From assembly GCF_003018255.1 (NCBI RefSeq), contig NZ_CP027440.1: a stretch of 64,000 nt of DNA. One strand, written 5' to 3'. The notes under the pieces are model-generated. The model was not told the origin of the DNA and did not search any database. It saw nothing but the letters and a program-made list of their open reading frames with translations. This DNA is from Escherichia coli. GTDB taxonomy: Bacteria; Pseudomonadota; Gammaproteobacteria; Enterobacterales; Enterobacteriaceae. The translations under genes were made by a program, and so were the position numbers. Shown in pieces: positions 3,122 through 48,326 of the stretch (position 1 is its first letter; every line of letters starts with the position of its first letter).

Positions 3122-6134
<3,013 letters not shown>

Positions 6135-38175: not shown

Positions 38176-40608
38176 ATGAGTGTGATTGCGCAGGCAGGGG
38201 CGAAAGGTCGTCAACTGCATAAATTTGGTGGCAGTAGTCTGGCTGATGTGAAGTGTTATTTGCGTGTCGCGGGCATTATGGCGGAGTACTCTCAGCCTGA
38301 CGATATGATGGTGGTTTCCGCCGCCGGTAGCACCACTAACCAGTTGATTAACTGGTTGAAACTAAGCCAGACCGATCGTCTCTCTGCGCATCAGGTTCAA
38401 CAAACGCTACGTCGTTATCAGTGCGATCTGATTAGCGGCCTGCTACCCGCCGAAGAAGCCGATAGCCTCATTAGCGCCTTTGTCAGCGATCTGGAACGCC
38501 TCGCGGCGCTGCTCGACAGCGGTATTAATGATGCGGTGTATGCGGAAGTGGTGGGCCACGGTGAAGTGTGGTCGGCGCGCCTGATGTCTGCGGTACTTAA
38601 TCAACAAGGGCTGCCAGCGGCCTGGCTTGATGCCCGCGAGTTTTTACGCGCTGAACGCGCCGCGCAGCCGCAGGTTGATGAAGGGCTTTCTTACCCGTTG
38701 CTGCAACAGCTACTGGTACAACATCCGGGCAAACGTCTGGTGGTGACCGGGTTTATCAGCCGTAACAACGCCGGTGAAACGGTGCTGCTGGGGCGTAACG
38801 GTTCCGACTATTCCGCGACACAAATCGGTGCGCTGGCGGGTGTTTCCCGCGTAACCATCTGGAGCGATGTCGCCGGGGTATATAGTGCCGACCCGCGTAA
38901 AGTGAAAGATGCCTGTCTGCTGCCATTGCTGCGTCTTGATGAAGCCAGCGAACTGGCGCGTCTGGCGGCCCCCGTTCTTCACGCCCGTACTTTACAGCCA
39001 GTATCCGGTAGTGAAATCGACCTGCAGCTGCGCTGTAGCTACACGCCGGATCAAGGTTCCACGCGCATTGAACGCGTGCTGGCCTCCGGTACTGGTGCGC
39101 GTATTGTCACCAGCCACGATGATGTCTGTTTGATTGAGTTTCAGGTGCCCGCCAGTCAGGATTTTAAACTGGCGCATAAAGAGATCGACCAAATCCTGAA
39201 ACGTGCTCAGGTGCGCCCACTGGCAGTTGGCGTGCATAACGATCGCCAGTTGCTGCAATTTTGCTACACCTCGGAAGTGGCCGACAGTGCGCTGAAAATC
39301 CTCGACGAAGCAGGATTACCCGGCGAACTGCGTCTGCGTCAGGGGCTGGCGCTGGTGGCGATGGTTGGGGCGGGCGTCACCCGTAACCCGCTGCATTGCC
39401 ACCGCTTCTGGCAGCAACTGAAAGGCCAGCCGGTCGAGTTTACCTGGCAGTCCGATGACGGCATCAGCCTGGTGGCAGTACTGCGCACCGGCCCGACCGA
39501 AAGCCTGATTCAGGGGCTGCATCAGTCCGTCTTCCGCGCAGAAAAACGCATCGGCCTGGTATTGTTCGGTAAGGGAAATATCGGTTCCCGCTGGCTGGAA
39601 CTGTTCGCCCGTGAGCAGAGCACGCTCTCGGCGCGCACCGGCTTTGAATTTGTGCTGGCAGGCGTGGTGGACAGCCGTCGCAGCCTGTTGAGCTATGACG
39701 GGCTGGACGCCAGCCGTGCGCTAGCCTTCTTTAATGATGAAGCCGTCGAACAGGATGAAGAGTCGCTATTCCTGTGGATGCGTGCCCATCCGTATGATGA
39801 TTTAGTTGTGCTGGACGTTACTGCCAGCCAGCAGCTTGCTGATCAGTATCTCGATTTCGCCAGCCACGGTTTCCACGTCATCAGTGCCAACAAACTGGCG
39901 GGAGCGAGCGACAGCAATAAATATCGCCAGATCCACGACGCGTTCGAAAAAACCGGGCGTCACTGGCTGTACAACGCCACCGTCGGCGCAGGTTTGCCGA
40001 TCAACCATACCGTGCGCGATCTGATCGACAGCGGCGACACTATTTTGTCGATCAGCGGGATCTTCTCCGGCACGCTCTCCTGGCTGTTCCTGCAATTCGA
40101 CGGTAGCGTGCCGTTTACTGAACTGGTGGATCAGGCGTGGCAGCAGGGCTTAACTGAACCTGACCCGCGTGATGACCTCTCCGGCAAAGATGTGATGCGC
40201 AAGCTGGTGATTCTGGCGCGTGAAGCGGGTTACAACATTGAACCGGACCAGGTGCGTGTTGAATCACTGGTGCCAACCCATTGCGAAGGTGGAAGCATCG
40301 ACCATTTCTTTGAAAATGGCGATGAACTTAATGAGCAGATGGTACAACGGTTGGAAGCGGCCCGTGAAATGGGGCTGGTGTTGCGCTACGTGGCGCGTTT
40401 CGATGCCAACGGCAAAGCGCGAGTAGGCGTGGAAGCGGTGCGAGAAGACCATCCGCTGGCATCACTACTACCGTGCGATAACGTCTTTGCCATCGAAAGC
40501 CGCTGGTATCGCGATAATCCGTTGGTGATCCGCGGGCCAGGTGCAGGGCGCGACGTCACCGCCGGGGCGATTCAGTCGGATATTAACCGTCTGGCGCAGT
40601 TGTTGTAG
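38176..40608 (+). CDS. metL: bifunctional aspartokinase II / homoserine dehydrogenase II
   Basis: 810-aa translation MSVIAQAGAKGRQLHKFGGSSLADVKCYLRVAGIMAEYS. Confidence 0.97.
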   Translation: MSVIAQAGAKGRQLHKFGGSSLADVKCYLRVAGIMAEYSQPDDMMVVSAAGSTTNQLINWLKLSQTDRLSAHQVQQTLRRYQCDLISGLLPAEEADSLISAFVSDLERLAALLDSGINDAVYAEVVGHGEVWSARLMSAVLNQQGLPAAWLDAREFLRAERAAQPQVDEGLSYPLLQQLLVQHPGKRLVVTGFISRNNAGETVLLGRNGSDYSATQIGALAGVSRVTIWSDVAGVYSADPRKVKDACLLPLLRLDEASELARLAAPVLHARTLQPVSGSEIDLQLRCSYTPDQGSTRIERVLASGTGARIVTSHDDVCLIEFQVPASQDFKLAHKEIDQILKRAQVRPLAVGVHNDRQLLQFCYTSEVADSALKILDEAGLPGELRLRQGLALVAMVGAGVTRNPLHCHRFWQQLKGQPVEFTWQSDDGISLVAVLRTGPTESLIQGLHQSVFRAEKRIGLVLFGKGNIGSRWLELFAREQSTLSARTGFEFVLAGVVDSRRSLLSYDGLDASRALAFFNDEAVEQDEESLFLWMRAHPYDDLVVLDVTASQQLADQYLDFASHGFHVISANKLAGASDSNKYRQIHDAFEKTGRHWLYNATVGAGLPINHTVRDLIDSGDTILSISGIFSGTLSWLFLQFDGSVPFTELVDQAWQQGLTEPDPRDDLSGKDVMRKLVILAREAGYNIEPDQVRVESLVPTHCEGGSIDHFFENGDELNEQMVQRLEAAREMGLVLRYVARFDANGKARVGVEAVREDHPLASLLPCDNVFAIESRWYRDNPLVIRGPGAGRDVTAGAIQSDINRLAQLL

Positions 40609-40619
40609 TGATTATTGAA

Positions 40620-40650
40620 CAAAAGCTGGCAGTTGCCAGCTTTTGTTGTC
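40620..40650 (+). terminator. metL intrinsic terminator
   Basis: caaaagctggca-gt-tgccagcttttg perfect 12-bp stem followed by a T-rich tail. Confidence 0.75.
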
Positions 40651-40824
40651 ACCTCTAAACCACCTCCTGCGGAGGTGGTGATTGATTGTCATTTTGCCTT
40701 TGGTCAGTGCCCCGGTAATAAGGGGGCTTTTGTGTTGAGCGATGAATTCACAGTGTGAATGGTGAAGTTATTTATGACAATTACAAAATGGCATTAAGTA
40801 AAAATATCTAAAACATCACCTGAT

Positions 40825-41685
40825 TTAAAATTGATAACCAATAGTAGTATAGGTTCCCCATCCTGTGTTTTTTAATTCAAATGGACCATCTCCGAAGTTA
40901 ACTTTCTCCCCAGCATTCCATTGTCCACCGTTGTGAAAATAACGTAGTGTAAATGCAAATTTCCAGTGTTCATATAGCAGGGAAAGGATATGGCTTGAAG
41001 CAATAGCATTACTGGTTCGTTTATTATTGTGTGATTTGTCCGCAAGATCGGAGCCAAAATCAAAGTTAGTAAAACTATTGTATACCAATCGCCCTCCGAA
41101 TAAATGGGTAAGAGGAATGCTATATTTTATTTTGAATCGATATCCGTCCCATTCATTTTCATTAGCGGCACCATAGTTTTGCCACTGATACTTGGCGTAT
41201 ATATTGGCAGAAAGCTTAATTGGTAGACCCGTGTCGATATCTGTACCAAGCCCCATATACCATGTACTTTGCCGGGATGACTGGTTGTCACCCATATCAT
41301 AGACATAGTTGTTTGCAATGAACCATTCTTTAAAAGGGCCGAACGCAAGATTTAATCCGGTCAATTTGTCAATGGAAAACCGAGGTTCTATTTCCGTAAA
41401 TAGTGGTGAGCCCTCATCCCAGATCCCAACATCATAGTGACTGCCGACGCCAAAGAATTTTGGTAGATCAACATAACCATAAAAATCAAACCAGTCTTTT
41501 CTTCCTGCTACAGTATATTCAGGGTAGAGGTCGTTAGTCAGTCTTGGGCCAAAGCGAGAGTCTGTGCGACCAATGACATTCAAGCTTTGATGTAACCAGC
41601 TTTCATCAATTTTAATTTCCTGAGCGTTTCCAATGCAAGGTATTAATAGAATGGATAAAGCTATCCCGTGCTTTTTTATACACAT
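40825..41685 (-). CDS. Tsx-family outer-membrane nucleoside-specific channel (Tsx paralog)
   Basis: 286 aa with a signal peptide; shares long blocks with E. coli Tsx as I recall it ([81 protein letters not shown]) and ends in an aromatic residue (GYQF). Confidence 0.85.
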
Positions 41686-41724
41686 AAATATATCTCATTA
41701 TTTATTGTTGATTTAGAGAAAAAT

Positions 41725-41761
41725 AATGCCATTCAGTGAATGAATGGCATTATAATTTTTT
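41725..41761 (-). terminator. intrinsic terminator after nucleotidase paralog A (bidirectional-looking)
   Basis: aatgccattca-gtgaa-tgaatggcatt 11-bp perfect stem flanked by A/T runs on both sides. Confidence 0.6.
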
Positions 41762-41763
41762 TA

Positions 41764-43389
41764 TTATTTGCTAACGTCCACCCGCATTTCATTTACCTGT
41801 GCAGGCGTAATCTTGTGGCCTTTCTTCAAATAATCGATCACGACATCGGACATGTTATTTCCGGCGCGGACCTGAACATTTTTCCCTTCTTTGAATGCCA
41901 GAAAACCATCGCCCCCCAGTGCAAGGAAAGTCGTTGTTGCAACATGGTAAATATTCGTATCAACGATCTCTTCACCATTAATTTTAAAAGATACTATGCG
42001 CTGACCTACTGGTTTCTTCGGGGTATAGCGCATTTCTGCGCCTTTTGACATTTGCAGGATGCCATTGGTAAGCGATGCCCCGTGTTCCAGTAGGTTACGC
42101 AGATCCTTACCGCTGAGATCCATTTCAGTAAGTTCATTCTTGAAGGGGAATGTACTGGTAATGTCGCCAAAGGTAATCGTGCCTGCATTTATATCCGCAC
42201 GTAAGCTGCCGGAGTTTATCAATGCAATCTGTGCAGTCGGTGCAGCGACAAGCATTGCATCGGTAAACAGGTTGCCAAGTTGCGATGACTCACCGTAGGC
42301 ACGAGTTAATGCAATCGATGATTCACCGACTGGTTGGCGTACAAGATCCGCCAGTTTTTTATTCCAGCCATTGATAACTTTTTGTGTGGTTGGATCAGGT
42401 ATCCATTCATCGGCATAAACCGTTTTCAGCTCAAAGCTCTTCACTTTATGAGTACGAGCTGTAGGGTTGACATCAAGGATTAATTTACCAATATCGATAC
42501 CGCCACTGTCAGTCGAAAGGATTAAGGTGTTGCCGACTTTGATTGGTTCTGGCGTTCCGACGTGGGCATGCCCGGTAATCAGAATATCCAATCCTTTCAC
42601 CTTGCTTGCGGTTTGAATATCTTTATCAAGAGCGCGTCTAACATCTGTATTGCCAATGCTGGACTGACGCGCCGGTACGCCTTCATGAACCAGCGCCACG
42701 GTGAGGTCAACCTTATCACGTAACTCATCGATATAATGCTGCAAATACTTCACTTCATCACGTGCTTCAATCCCCTGATTCTTGAGGGTCGCGGAAGATT
42801 TATCAAATCGGTTATTATTGTCATTATCGAGTCCCTGGAGAGAGAGCTCCGAGACCGTGTCATTAAATGCAAATACGCCGTGTAGCCCAACAATACCAAT
42901 CTTGATGCCATCTTTTTCCAGGATGGTGTAGGGCTTGTTCCAGAAGGGTTTCTCACTCTCTTTATGATAAACATTGGCTAATAAAACAGGGAAATTCGCT
43001 TTGCTTAATTGTCGGAGGGCATTATCCCAGCCATGGTCAAACTCATGATTACCGATTGATACTGCGTCAAAAGGCATGGTATTCATAATATCAATTATTG
43101 CTTCGCCCTTTGTCAGGCTACTGATATATGGCCCGGTGAAATAGTCTCCAGCATCAAAATAAAAGGTGGCTTTATTTTTGGCTTTCTCTTGTTTTACTAA
43201 CGTGGATATATTGGCAAAGCCACCAATGTCGCGTTTTCCGTCTGCGACATACGGTACTTTATAGGAATCCACATGAGCGTGAAGATCATTGGTATAAATA
43301 ATCGTGACATCCTGCGCCATAACTGAGGTCGAAAAAATAGTCAGCAATGTTGCGGCAAATAAAGTACGCTGCGCTGTTTTCATTCGCAT
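41764..43389 (-). CDS. UshA/CpdB-family periplasmic metallophosphoesterase / 5'-nucleotidase, paralog A
   Basis: 541 aa; signal peptide ending VMA|QD; calcineurin-like motifs [27 protein letters not shown]; C-terminal 5'-nucleotidase-type region with GGDGF; alternative ATG at 43383. Confidence 0.85.
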   Translation of the reverse strand: MRMKTAQRTLFAATLLTIFSTSVMAQDVTIIYTNDLHAHVDSYKVPYVADGKRDIGGFANISTLVKQEKAKNKATFYFDAGDYFTGPYISSLTKGEAIIDIMNTMPFDAVSIGNHEFDHGWDNALRQLSKANFPVLLANVYHKESEKPFWNKPYTILEKDGIKIGIVGLHGVFAFNDTVSELSLQGLDNDNNNRFDKSSATLKNQGIEARDEVKYLQHYIDELRDKVDLTVALVHEGVPARQSSIGNTDVRRALDKDIQTASKVKGLDILITGHAHVGTPEPIKVGNTLILSTDSGGIDIGKLILDVNPTARTHKVKSFELKTVYADEWIPDPTTQKVINGWNKKLADLVRQPVGESSIALTRAYGESSQLGNLFTDAMLVAAPTAQIALINSGSLRADINAGTITFGDITSTFPFKNELTEMDLSGKDLRNLLEHGASLTNGILQMSKGAEMRYTPKKPVGQRIVSFKINGEEIVDTNIYHVATTTFLALGGDGFLAFKEGKNVQVRAGNNMSDVVIDYLKKGHKITPAQVNEMRVDVSK

Positions 43390-43423
43390 TCCTTGTTAAA
43401 TAAATTGACTGATAAATGAGATT

Positions 43424-44977
43424 TTATTTGGCGACGTCCATGACTCGTTTAGTTAAGTCTGGGGTGACAGGTTTATGATTTTTGAAATAATCGATGATAG
43501 ATTCCGCCGAGGTTGTTCCCGGTATCGTCTTCACATTTTTTCCATTCAAAAATGCTTCAAAACCGTCACCACCACTGGCACAAAAGGAGTGCGTGGCAAT
43601 ACGATATGTTTGATTATCTTCCACGGGTTTGCCGTTAATGGTGAAAGAGATTAACCGTTGGTTGAGGGGTTTTTTGCTGTCATAGACAACCGCAACACTT
43701 TTAGAAACTTGTAACACACCGTTAGTTAGATTGGTTGCATGCGTCATCAATGATTTGAGATCGCGGCCCGTCAAATCCATCTCGATGAGGTCATTATTAA
43801 AGGGGAATGTGCTAATAACATCTCCCAGTGTGATATCGCCTTTAGGAAAATCAGCTCGAATCCCACCGCTATTTTGAAATCCGGCAACGGCATCAGGTGT
43901 TTTTTCCATCATTGCATCAAGAATAAGGTTGCCGGTAGAAGAGGAACTACCATACTCACGTGTTAAAACTACGGGAGAATGGCCGACAACTTCCTGTGTT
44001 ATTTTGTTAAGCTTTGCACTCCATTTATCAATAGTATTTTGAACGATGGTGTCAGGTTTAAATTGATCTGCAAAGATGGTGATTAACTCACCATTATAAC
44101 TGTCAATTTTCTTCGTTTTCGGATTGTAATCAAGCACAAGTTTTCCGATGTTGGTGCCGTATGCATCGGTAGATACAATTAATGTGTTATTAACTTTTAT
44201 TGGTTGCGGTGTTCCGACATGTGCGTGACCGGTAATTAAGACATCAACACCATTCACTTTTTTAGCTGTCTCAATATCTGCCTGTAGTAGCCGCTCCACA
44301 TCTTTACTACCAAAGCTTGATTGACGCGCCGGGACACCTTCGTGAATTAGCAAAACGGTAATGTCGACTTTACCTTTTAATTCTGCAAGTGCTTTATTTA
44401 AATATTTAATTTCGTCTCTGGCTTCTACGCCTTCACGTGCTTTTGCCGCGACTGTATCATAGAAAGCGAATGCGCCATGCAATCCAATCACACCAATCTT
44501 TAAACCATCTTTTTCGATAATGGTCCACGGATGATCCCAAACTGGTTTATTCGTATCGGTGTAGTAGATATTTCCCAGCAGAATGGGGAATTTTGCTTTT
44601 GATAACTGAGACACCATATTGGGCACACCGTGATCGAACTCGTGATTACCAACAGACACCGCATCAAAGGGCATAGTGTTCATGATATCAATAATAGCCT
44701 CACCTTTGGTCAGGGTGCTGATATACGGCCCGGTAAAATAGTCGCCTGCATCAAAGAAAAACACATCTTTGCTTTTTTTCTTCGCTTCATTAACGATGCC
44801 TGAAATATTAGCCATACCACCTATAAGTCTGTTCTTATCAACAGCGATGATTTTTGCTGGATTGACATGTGCGTGAATGTCATTCGTATAATAAATAGTA
44901 ACGTCCTGAGCTAGAACACTGTGAGAAAATATCACGCCGAATATGACTGATAATGTTGTAAATACAGTTTTCATCAT
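43424..44977 (-). CDS. UshA/CpdB-family periplasmic metallophosphoesterase / 5'-nucleotidase, paralog B
   Basis: 517 aa; signal peptide ending VLA|QD; same motif set (YTNDIHAH, FDAGDYF, GNHEFD, ITGHAH, GGDGF); 34-bp gap to paralog A suggests co-transcription. Confidence 0.85.
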   Translation of the reverse strand: MMKTVFTTLSVIFGVIFSHSVLAQDVTIYYTNDIHAHVNPAKIIAVDKNRLIGGMANISGIVNEAKKKSKDVFFFDAGDYFTGPYISTLTKGEAIIDIMNTMPFDAVSVGNHEFDHGVPNMVSQLSKAKFPILLGNIYYTDTNKPVWDHPWTIIEKDGLKIGVIGLHGAFAFYDTVAAKAREGVEARDEIKYLNKALAELKGKVDITVLLIHEGVPARQSSFGSKDVERLLQADIETAKKVNGVDVLITGHAHVGTPQPIKVNNTLIVSTDAYGTNIGKLVLDYNPKTKKIDSYNGELITIFADQFKPDTIVQNTIDKWSAKLNKITQEVVGHSPVVLTREYGSSSSTGNLILDAMMEKTPDAVAGFQNSGGIRADFPKGDITLGDVISTFPFNNDLIEMDLTGRDLKSLMTHATNLTNGVLQVSKSVAVVYDSKKPLNQRLISFTINGKPVEDNQTYRIATHSFCASGGDGFEAFLNGKNVKTIPGTTSAESIIDYFKNHKPVTPDLTKRVMDVAK

Positions 44978-45206
44978 CCCTCCTGGATAGGGTGTGTTAC
45001 ATTTGTTGAATTATTTAAATAAAAGACACATCGTGTCTTATTTTATGTAAGCATAGTTCAGAAAAGTATTGTGTGATCTTAGTAACAAATAATGTTATTA
45101 ATTAAACATTGACCATGATTATATTTCACGGTCATACATTTATATATTTAATTAAATGAAAGGTAGTGTTCTCTCTTAATTTATGGTCGTTTGTCGAGTG
45201 TATTGA

Positions 45207-46331
45207 CTAACAAGATGGAGTGAGCGATTCATTGTATTTTAACGCCAGTGAGGTCAGCATTTGTGTTACGCGACCTGCGGATAATAACGCGCTTTGGGTA
45301 AAGTCGTGTTGGTCTGTCAGCCATGTGATAAAACAACGACTGGTTGCCAGAGAAACATTTGCGCCCCTTTCTAAGCAGGCTCCCGTGAGTAGGCAGACCA
45401 TCTTGCAGTTATTCCCCTGCTCCCAGCGCTGCCACTGATTTTGCCACCAACCATGGTATGTCGTTCCCTTAAAATGCCAGGGCGTATCAGCGTTACTGTC
45501 ACTGATTTCTTCTTCTACGAACCAAAGTTCACCTTGTTGTTGGCGGAACTGATCTGCCCAGGCTGTAATAATTGCGCCTCTTAGAAAACATTCGTGTGAA
45601 ATAATATGCGTTTTGACATCTGGATAGCGGATTTTCAGTATTCTGAAATGCCCGTGTGCCGTGATAACCGGGCGTAGTATGGCTCCCTTACCGTTGCGCT
45701 TGAGTACAGCACTGCCATACTGAATTTCATCGAACTGGCTCCGGCGCAAGAATTGCGCTTCACGCATATCTACCTTCTGCACGATATCGCGATGGTGCAT
45801 AGTTGGTTCTGTGTTGCCCTTGTAACTGTACCGCAGACTGTCTCCTGTCTGATGTTGCGTATAATTCGTGGAGAGATGAAGAATGTTGCCACGAGTGGCG
45901 TCAAGACTGACTAAAACATACAGTTTTTGTACTGCGCTGGCCCCTTGAAAGGGTATGAACAGTTGAACGGTTTCAATGGCCTGGGGATGCGTAATTTCTT
46001 TCTGATACTGTTTAGGCGTCCAGACTTTTTTGCAGTTACGGCATTGAATGCGTTGCGAACCCTGTGGATTGTGACCATAACAAATCATGTCTGTGCCATA
46101 ACATACCGGGCAGAAATGACCCTTCTCCGAGGCCCACGTAGATAAGTGAACTGACAACCAGTCACGAAATTGTTGCTCGTCAAACAACGGCGGGTAACTG
46201 CCACATGCCCGACAGTGCAGTGCCGGATAACCCAGTTTATAGTCTGGCCAACTGTAATCTTCCGATGAGGCCAATCCCAAATTTCGGCAACCGAACGTTT
46301 TACAGGCATTAATCGTAAACAGAGTCGACAT
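45207..46331 (-). CDS. cysteine-rich cytoplasmic protein with transposase-type zinc ribbon (possible IS1/IS1595-like transposase relic or regulator)
   Basis: 374-aa ORF with no signal peptide; Cys pairs at C10/C15 and C40/C43, then CPVCYG...GSQRIQCRNCKKVWTP resembling the CPxC...QRYxCxxCxKxW zinc ribbon of IS1 InsA / IS1595 transposases; assignment is by motif only. Confidence 0.55.
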   Translation of the reverse strand: MSTLFTINACKTFGCRNLGLASSEDYSWPDYKLGYPALHCRACGSYPPLFDEQQFRDWLSVHLSTWASEKGHFCPVCYGTDMICYGHNPQGSQRIQCRNCKKVWTPKQYQKEITHPQAIETVQLFIPFQGASAVQKLYVLVSLDATRGNILHLSTNYTQHQTGDSLRYSYKGNTEPTMHHRDIVQKVDMREAQFLRRSQFDEIQYGSAVLKRNGKGAILRPVITAHGHFRILKIRYPDVKTHIISHECFLRGAIITAWADQFRQQQGELWFVEEEISDSNADTPWHFKGTTYHGWWQNQWQRWEQGNNCKMVCLLTGACLERGANVSLATSRCFITWLTDQHDFTQSALLSAGRVTQMLTSLALKYNESLTPSC

Positions 46332-46463
46332 ATATCACCAACGATTTCACAAGGTCGTTGATTTTGTCCGGCAACTATCCCCTGCAGATGTGATTACTCT
46401 CACATAAATAAGTCTTTCAGAACGTAATGTAGCAATCCTTTATCTCACTGAAAGGGATTGTTT

Positions 46464-48017
46464 ATGAAAATTAAAATACTTGCTGCGGGTATCGCATTAA
46501 CACTGCCGTTCTGGGCTTGCGCTAAAGATGTCACTATTATTTATACCAACGACCTCCATGCGCATGTAGAACCTTATAAAGTGCCGTGGATCGCTGACGG
46601 TAAACGGGATATTGGCGGCTGGGCAAATATCACTACGCTGGTTAAGCAAGAAAAAGCAAAAAATAAAGCGACATGGTTTTTTGATGCGGGCGACTATTTT
46701 ACCGGGCCATATATCAGCAGCCTGACCAAAGGTAAGGCTATTATCGATATTATGAATACTATGCCGTTTGATGCCGTCACGATAGGCAACCATGAATTTG
46801 ACCACGGCTGGGACAACACATTATTACAGTTGAGTCAGGCAAAATTCCCGATTGTGCAGGGCAATGTTTTTTATCAGAACAGCAGTAAATCATTCTGGGA
46901 TAAGCCCTATACCATCATCGAAAAAGACGGTGTGAAAATAGGCGTTATAGGTTTGCACGGTGTATTTGCCTTTAATGACACAGTATCTGCTGCCACGCGA
47001 GTGGGTATTGAGGCGCGTGATGAAATTAAATGGCTACAACGTTATATCGATGAACTTAAAGGCAAGGTTGATTTGACCGTCGCCCTGATCCATGAAGGTG
47101 TTCCGGCCCGCCAGTCCAGTATGGGAGGCACAGATGTGCGTCGCGCGCTGGATAAAGATATTCAGACGGCAAGTCAGGTGAAAGGGCTGGATATTTTGAT
47201 CACCGGACATGCACATGTGGGTACGCCGGAACCGATTAAAGTCGGCAATACGCTCATCCTCTCCACTGACAGCGGCGGGATTGATGTGGGCAAACTGGTT
47301 CTCGACTACAAAGAGAAGCCGCATAATTTTACGGTGAAAAACTTCGAGCTTAAAACCATTTACGCTGACGAGTGGAAGCCCGATCCACAAACGAAACAGG
47401 TGATCGACGGCTGGAATAAAAAGCTTGATGAAGTGGTGCAACAAACGGTGGCGCAATCGCCGGTTGAATTAAAACGTGCCTATGGTGAATCGGCTTCCCT
47501 CGGGAACCTGGCGGCTGACGCTTTACTGGTAGCGGCGGGTAAAAACACCCAATTGGCGTTAACCAACTCTGGCGGCATTCGCAATGAGATCCCCGCAGGG
47601 GCGATCACGATGGGCGGCGTCATCAGTACGTTCCCGTTCCCCAACGAACTGGTGACGATGGAACTCACGGGTAAACAATTACGCAGTCTGATGGAACACG
47701 GCGCAAGTTTAAGCAATGGCGTTTTACAGGTATCGAAAGGCCTGGAAATGAAGTACGACAGCAGCAAGCCGGTTGGTCAGCGGGTAATCACACTGACTCT
47801 GAATGGCAAACCCATTGAAGATGCGACGGTTTATCACATTGCTACTCAGAGTTTCCTTGCTGATGGTGGAGATGGTTTTACCGCCTTTACCGAAGGGAAA
47901 GCGCGTAACACAACGGGCGGTTATTACGTTTATCACGCGGTGGTTGATTACTTCAAAGCGGGCAACACCATTACGGATGAACAGCTCAACGGTATGCGCG
48001 TGAAGGATATCAAATAA
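46464..48017 (+). CDS. UshA/CpdB-family periplasmic metallophosphoesterase / 5'-nucleotidase, paralog C
   Basis: 517 aa from the ATG at 46464 (RBS aaggga; the ORF-track ORF starts at a TTG at 46458); signal peptide ending ACA|KD; motifs [32 protein letters not shown]; closest by eye to paralog A. Confidence 0.85.
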
Positions 48018-48073
48018 AAGTGCGCACTGAATTGACTCAACTGTTTGTTACCCGTTGATTGCGCAGATCCTGT

Positions 48074-48103
48074 ATTCGGCCTACGCGAGGGCGCAGGCCG
48101 AAT
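48074..48103 (+). terminator. stem-loop downstream of paralog C (possible terminator)
   Basis: attcggcct-N12-aggccgaat 9-bp inverted repeat; no strong T-run, so weak. Confidence 0.35.
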
Positions 48104-48326
48104 CAGATGCCTTAGCATCACCATCCGGTGGCAGGACGTTGTTTTTCGAATTAGCCCAGGTGTCGCTGTGTTGTCAGAATATGAGTCAAAACGTGCGAGG
48201 TGGATTGTGCTATAGAGAAATCTTTTATCGCCTCTAATTAAGATGAGTTTTTTTCATCTTCCCTGATTTTTCCTCACCATCATTGGTTATTTTTCGGTTG
48301 ACGCCCTTCGGCTTTTCCTTCATCTT

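Follow-up and report, generated by a model that had tools for sequence, protein, structure and literature searches.

Features of the metL/tsx-like intergenic region

The sequence examined was a 64,000-nucleotide stretch of Escherichia coli DNA (the window), in which metL and a convergent gene for a Tsx-like nucleoside channel (286 codons, ending at 40825) are separated by a gap of 216 bp. All four structures under study, three hairpins and a palindrome, are located in this gap (Table 1). The tsx-like gene is the last gene in the minus-strand part of a block lying between metL and metF (window positions 40608-48248), which also includes three 5'-nucleotidase paralogues and one hypothetical gene. 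The 5'-nucleotidase genes (41764-43389 and 43424-44977 on the minus strand, and about 46464-48017 on the plus strand) share 66-75% DNA sequence identity with one another. The Tsx-like channel is 58-68% identical to Tsx of other genera, and no close relative of the block was present in another species among the best 80 matches. Together, the channel and nucleotidases look like a nucleotide-scavenging module.

Table 1. Coordinates of features in and around the metL/tsx-like gap (window numbering)
Feature	Position	Strand	Sequence or basis
metL ORF	38176-40608	+	Stop codon 40606-40608, the left limit of homology with K-12 and with the short-block haplotype
Hairpin 1 (candidate bidirectional terminator)	40618-40647	both	AACAAAAGCTGGCA-GT-TGCCAGCTTTTGTT; A-tract/stem/T-tract
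TTTTG	40641-40645	+	End of the terminator T-run; putative counterpart of the TTTTA flanking IS left ends elsewhere
Predicted IS200/IS605-family left-end relic, nt 1-41	40646-40686	+	TTGTCACCTCTAAACCACCTCCTGCGGAGGTGGTGATTGAT; alignment to left ends
Hairpin 2	40659-40679	both	ACCACCTCC-TGC-GGAGGTGGT; IS left-end nt 14-34
Hairpin 3 (terminator-like)	40709-40737	+	GCCCC-GGTAATAAG-GGGGC then TTTTGTGTT
Palindrome, 15 bp	40746-40760	both	ATTCACA-G-TGTGAAT (ATTCACAGTGTGAAT); arms 40746-40752 and 40754-40760
AT-rich stretch	40761-40824	-	Directly 3' of the tsx-like stop codon; start of the tsx-like 3' untranslated region
Tsx-like nucleoside channel gene	40825-41685	-	ORF; NCBIfam NF011686 (Tsx), E 2e-148; RefSeq annotation

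A repeat finder returned three perfect inverted repeats in the gap, namely hairpin 1, hairpin 2 and the palindrome, and with the sequence itself this located all four of the structures in the original prediction. The region from 40606 to 40830 was found to fold with -72.2 kcal/mol on the plus strand (shuffled sequences, -51.7 +/- 4.1; z -5.0) and -66.4 kcal/mol on the minus strand (z -6.1). As none of 200 dinucleotide shuffles folded as well as the real sequence, the hairpin set exceeds what is expected by chance.

RefSeq annotates no features under the spacer. Positions 40400-41000 were scanned against Rfam 15 at E-values up to 10, which returned only noise (the best matches scored 13.5-17 bits where the family thresholds are 37.6-55, at E no lower than 4.6; the 17-bit match has a threshold of 44 bits), and no promoter-like site was found on the plus strand of the spacer. 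A 47-codon ORF with a TTG start (40615-40758) covers all of the hairpins and was treated as spurious.

Position of the array relative to the K-12 genome

The K-12 sequence aligned with the window up to position 40607 and resumed at 48249. None of the hairpin motifs was present in the 348-bp metL-metF spacer of K-12, hence the array belongs to the variable segment and not to the core. The alignment with K-12 that had been proposed as a means of locating the junction thus places it at the metL stop codon (40607/8). In K-12, metL is followed by a different terminator (CCCGGTACTCATGTTTTCGGG + TTTATGGTTT); the hairpin originally called the metL terminator is not core sequence, as homology with K-12 ends at the metL stop codon. 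The K-12 spacer was also seen to contain a REP-like inverted repeat (GCCGGATTAAGCGTTTACGACGAATCCGGC; coordinates 3183 to 3222 of K-12 locus L002) and an annotated 44-codon hypothetical ORF, both in the ~200 bp replaced by the block.

Three states of the metL-metF gap were identified in E. coli, the K-12-type 348-bp spacer, the 7.6-kb block and a short block of ~3 kb, and all three have a common left breakpoint at the metL stop codon. Of 5426 complete E. coli genomes, 660 carry the 7.6-kb block with a spacer of the kind seen in the window, among them CFT073, IHE3034 and a Nissle (EcN) record. A 501-bp probe covering the junction (40500-41000) was 100% identical to strain DETEC-S792. The short block, represented by SK1144 (ST131), was found in 1183 genomes. 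In these, the metL stop codon is followed by 7 bp and then by sequence corresponding to window position 45244, and the whole array is missing. SK1144 aligned on the metL side only up to 40607, and the shared part of its block is 90.7% identical to the window.

Hairpin 1 is a candidate bidirectional terminator

The arms of hairpin 1 (40618-40631 and 40634-40647) are 14 nt long and 100% complementary, giving a stem of 13-14 bp with a predicted free energy of -20.9 kcal/mol, located 10 nt after the metL stop codon and about 180 nt after that of the tsx-like gene. On both strands it reads as a GC-rich stem-loop followed by a U-run, the criterion for an intrinsic terminator. A scan with a simple terminator consensus did not flag it, presumably since its T-run belongs to the extended stem. 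Judged from this arrangement, hairpin 1 appears to be a bidirectional intrinsic terminator for metL on the plus strand and the convergent tsx-like operon on the minus strand, and would most likely end both the metBL transcripts and the tsx-like/5'-nucleotidase transcripts.

Hairpin 2 lies in the remnant of an IS200/IS605-family left end

Hairpin 2, originally placed at 40660-40678, has 9-nt arms (40659-40667 and 40671-40679) that are 100% complementary, and was flagged by the terminator scan on the plus strand. When the spacer alone was used as the query, window positions 40640-40686 were also found at 194 plasmid places and at further chromosomal sites. Alignment of three such sites revealed a shared element starting TTGT(T/C)A..CTAAACCACCTCC-NNN-GGAGGTGGTGATTGA and continuing for ~50 more bases that are absent from the window. 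Other copies of the element run straight into a gene annotated as an IS200/IS605 transposase (tnpA). Two other candidates for the terminator-adjacent repeat, a group IIC intron and a REP-type element, were dropped because copies run into these tnpA genes. Three other loci with the repeat were subjected to an Rfam scan at gathering threshold, in which the sole match, an ALIL pseudoknot within an IS3-family element, was unrelated.

The IS copy reconstructed from one of these loci (L006) is 628 bp in length and encodes a protein of 144 aa, which matched Pfam Y1_Tnp (PF01797; E 9e-40) and NCBIfam transpos_IS200 (NF033573; E 2e-44), as well as the TnpA structures solved for ISDra2 and IS608. Comparison of full IS copies with the whole 64-kb window using blastn-short produced a single significant match, at 40655-40685 (E 5e-7). 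Positions 40646-40686 aligned with left-end nt 1-41 of six copies (L003-L006, L009 and L010), and the homology stops at 40686-40689, where an intact IS goes on CCTGTAAGGCTATAGCC. The hexamer TTGTCA that opens the left end (40646-40651) recurs at 40686-40691, exactly where the homology stops (GATTGAT/TGTCATTTT); this could be coincidental, or could reflect the way in which the remaining IS was lost.

The right end of the IS carries a similar hairpin followed by TCTTTTA (CCACCTCC-TCA-GGAGGTGG-TCTTTTA in the IS200 right end), and right ends finish in either TCTTTTA or TATTTTA. However, the bases flanking hairpin 2 on both sides match the left end and not the right end. No IS right end was found in the window, as the matches of 19-20 nt to right ends at 40659-40679 are to the self-complementary hairpin 2, and a tblastn search of the window with the TnpA of the family gave no match. 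As the window includes neither tnpA nor a right end, the segment 40646-40686 is, on these alignments, a relic of an IS left end and not an IS. The idea that the structures mark an insertion scar thus holds in part: hairpin 2 is the scar of a mobile element, an IS200-family left end, and does not represent an att-like scar left by the 7.6-kb block.

The left-end hairpin co-varies among members of the family, for example CCGTCTCC/GGAGATGG in copy L012, which fits a structure used by the IS itself, and by analogy hairpin 2 is likely to be the hairpin recognised by TnpA. Against the assignment to an IS left end, the match covers only 41 nt, half of which is a self-complementary hairpin, and the target flank in the window is TTTTG, not TTTTA. 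An intact IS at the metL/tsx-like site was found in no genome.

Insertion context and other copies of the element

Elements of the IS200/IS605 family lack terminal inverted repeats and insert 3' of a short specific target that is repeated at the close of the right end. Copies of the IS elsewhere have TTTTA before the left end and a right end closing in TTTTA. The flank of the left end is TTTTA in L003, L005, L006, L009 and L010, and ATTTG in L004. Counting the window, six of the eight independent left-end contexts start right after an A-tract, a terminator-like hairpin and a T-run, with TTTTA or TTTTG as the flank, and a position directly after a terminator T-run is, in these alignments, a common site for this IS family. 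Most probably, an IS200-family IS once inserted directly 3' of the T-run of hairpin 1, and everything past about nt 41 was later lost.

Further partial copies were observed. The relic in pSMS35_130 (L003; coordinates 2496 to 2600) is ~105 nt long and is located ~120 nt downstream of a gene for a ProQ/FinO-family protein. Relics of this type were found in 427 PLSDB plasmids at 99% identity or more, and occur on hundreds of Escherichia, Salmonella and Klebsiella plasmids. The relic closest to that in the window (93% identity over 43 nt) is in the chromosome of strain EC6622 (L004; coordinates 2501 to 2590), where it too immediately follows a terminator hairpin, in the gap separating dpdD from queD within a Dpd (7-deazaguanine DNA modification) island. 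In strain NMBU_W05E18 (L011; coordinates 1501 to 1818), an internally deleted and decayed derivative of ~318 bp with left and right ends and no intact tnpA was found beside capsule genes.

Hairpin 3 resembles a plus-strand terminator

Hairpin 3 was found where it had been predicted (40709-40727, with a T-run), but the 3' arm, given as ggggg, was slightly off register and reads GGGGC. The arms, GCCCC (40709-40713) and GGGGC (40723-40727), enclose a loop of 9 nt. A terminator-like arrangement is present on the plus strand only, as the minus strand continues ACTGACC. The predicted free energy is -10.5 kcal/mol in the window, and -14.6 kcal/mol in the allele carried by IHE3034, in which one extra C produces a 6-bp stem (GCCCCC/GGGGGC). 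From its sequence hairpin 3 looks like a plus-strand terminator, and it would stop residual plus-strand read-through only.

The hairpin 3 stretch was not found elsewhere in E. coli when searched as part of the whole spacer, and positions 40687-40830 had no match in 72,556 plasmids. It may be a remnant of whatever previously separated the IS from the tsx-like gene, or have served as the terminator of something lost along with the IS body. An origin from the tnpA-proximal right-end hairpin (GCCCCC-TTATA-GGGGGC) was also considered, as the IHE3034-type hairpin 3 has an identical 6-bp stem and the minus strand has GCCCCCTTAT in common. This was unsupported, the best alignment being of 11 nt (E 7.5).

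Spacer alleles in genomes carrying the block

Seven haplotypes of the spacer in carrier genomes were aligned. The carriers have two basic alleles, the window type in 101 genomes and the IHE3034/CFT073/Nissle (EcN) type in 553, which differ at 15 of 216 positions (~7%), and seven of the 15 differences fall in the AT-rich stretch next to the tsx-like stop codon. The spacer in six further genomes is intermediate. Only that of L097 was examined, and it proved to be recombinant, its breakpoint falling between 40760 and 40774.

In the major allele, hairpin 2 has a compensatory change of the 40664/40674 pair from C-G to T-A, a mismatch introduced at 40662 (A to T) and loop variants, and one strain has an additional disruptive G-to-A change. 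The predicted stability falls by 6.6 kcal/mol, from -16.1 kcal/mol in the window allele to -9.5 kcal/mol in the IHE3034-type allele. Hairpin 2 is thus drifting in the commoner allele, though the compensatory pair hints at some constraint and is a poor fit to pure decay. Hairpin 1 and its flanks were identical in all seven haplotypes, and hairpin 3 was invariant except for the 1-nt indel described above. The rough Poisson P values for this invariance are about 0.05 and 0.09, respectively, and because there are only two basic alleles the conservation carries little statistical weight and is weak evidence of constraint.

Comparison of the window with IHE3034 (L013) over 13.8 kb revealed divergence of 4-7% from the middle of metL to the 3' end of the tsx-like gene (38700-41000), and elsewhere mostly 2% or less, with isolated peaks at 41751-42000, 46001-46250 and 46751-47000. 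The raised divergence at 38700-41000 suggests a recombination patch. As it extends across the whole of this stretch, the spacer is not unusually variable for its neighbourhood. In one strain with the window-type spacer, 2020CK-00188 (L100), the annotation gives the tsx-like gene as a pseudogene without its C-terminus, and a base change was found at 40819, near the stop codon.

Origin and possible roles of the array

Taken together, the array very probably consists of four unrelated things, a terminator hairpin, an IS200-type relic, a second terminator-like hairpin and a chance palindrome. A role in ending transcription or insulating metL from the block, as originally suggested for the whole array, is reasonable for hairpins 1-3 on the basis of their sequences. 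By analogy with the published IS200 hairpin, hairpin 2 may still act as a weak back-up terminator, perhaps in both directions, though it is decaying.

It is unlikely that the hairpins were instead selected together, with the IS relic taken over by the host, and that hairpins 1-3 are kept either because they insulate metBL in three steps from the tsx-like nucleoside-scavenging operon or because they give rise to a regulatory RNA. Such an RNA could be a small RNA from the tsx-like 3' untranslated region with its 3' end at hairpin 1, or a short plus-strand RNA that starts near the end of the IS relic and finishes at hairpin 3. The strong folding excess on both strands, the invariance of hairpins 1 and 3 in the seven haplotypes while the remaining spacer differs by ~7%, and the compensatory pair in hairpin 2 are all consistent with a selected structure. 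In Salmonella, IS200 left ends yield regulatory RNAs (PMC5435999), and the tnpA transcript of IS200 starts at about nt 40 (PMC4513863), where the relic ends. However, the relic lacks precisely the art200 and tnpA 5'UTR region (from nt 40), and the absence of both an Rfam match and a plus-strand promoter-like site in the spacer also argues against this reading. So do the loss of stability of hairpin 2 in the major allele, with the further disruptive change in one strain, and the 1183 short-block genomes that do without the whole array. If the insulator or small RNA were real, selection on the stem would account for the C-G to T-A change seen in the B2-type allele.

It is still less probable that the array is the integration scar of the 7.6-kb block, in the form of an att site or terminal repeats, or that the block is cargo carried between IS200 ends. 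The array does lie exactly at the left limit of K-12 homology, and the IS left end points into the block, but neither an IS right end nor tnpA is present anywhere in the window and no integrase is annotated in the block. Comparison of the two junctions (40580-40900 and 47950-48320) revealed no significant direct or inverted repeat, the best being 9 nt (E 0.34), and no right end or other repeat was found at the metF-side junction. The short-block haplotype has the same left breakpoint without any hairpin of the array. A scar or cargo origin is largely refuted.

The least probable proposal of all is that the palindrome, a perfect 7+7 inverted repeat in which all three allele differences make the window version more symmetric, is an operator for a dimeric regulator of the tsx-like operon or metL, as it is located downstream of both convergent genes and not in a promoter, reads AGTAACAGAGTGAAT in the major allele (553 of the 660 carrier genomes), where three substitutions destroy the symmetry, has no second perfect 7+7 copy of its sequence in the window, and is of a kind no more frequent than expected (21 perfect 7+7 palindromes with a gap of 0-3 in the 64-kb window, against 16.1 +/- 4.4 in shuffles). 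The original prediction of a regulator site is not borne out, and the palindrome was treated as a chance feature specific to one allele. In a search for an outgroup that would give these substitutions a polarity, the Tsx-like protein was compared with 100,044 species genomes, and the best matches in other species, 58-68% identical, were apparently ordinary tsx genes.

Significance

All the component types, namely intrinsic terminators, the left-end hairpin of IS200 and relics of IS elements, are already well known, and what is new here is only the identity of an unannotated relic and the exact placement of the junction. The findings are ordinary biology, of little importance beyond annotation, though they account for hairpins that occur, unannotated, in 660 of the 5426 complete E. 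coli genomes. They also fix the left boundary of the variable metL-metF segment at the metL stop codon itself, and show that the metL terminator, too, is haplotype-dependent. Studies of metBL 3' ends or of tsx-like/5'-nucleotidase expression should expect terminators that depend on the strain. In addition, they provide further examples of IS200-family elements located directly after intrinsic terminators and of left-end-only relics that persist there.

Comparison with known systems

The block is the same as GR 31 (metL..metF) of ExPEC/APEC, with a Tsx-like channel and three UshA-like nucleotidases (PMC12928451). The passages of that paper on metL, metF or the nucleotidases discuss the genes, and the intergenic hairpins are not mentioned in them. 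Hairpin 1, with its GC core stem, 5' A-tract and 3' T-tract, resembles the bidirectional Rho-independent terminators found between convergent genes.

IS200 belongs to the tnpA-only group of the IS200/IS605 family. Nucleotides 12-34 of its left end form an inverted repeat that acts as a strong Rho-independent terminator in both directions, halting ~85% of upstream, outside transcripts (PMC4513863, PMC5435999). By position, hairpin 2 (left-end nt 14-34) matches this repeat, and the relic, like the other copies of the IS, lies directly after a T-run. However, only the first 41 nt are left in the window, and the tnpA 5'UTR/art200 region (nt 40 on), tnpA and the right end are gone. IS200 was compared here by its published description, and its published length is 707 bp, whereas the full-length E. 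coli relatives are ~628-630 bp with a TnpA of 144 aa. The other left-end-only relics, in pSMS35_130-type plasmids and between dpdD and queD, have the same start and hairpin and are likewise intergenic, by the 3' end of a minus-strand gene, but they retain ~90-105 nt of the element, compared with 41 nt in the window.
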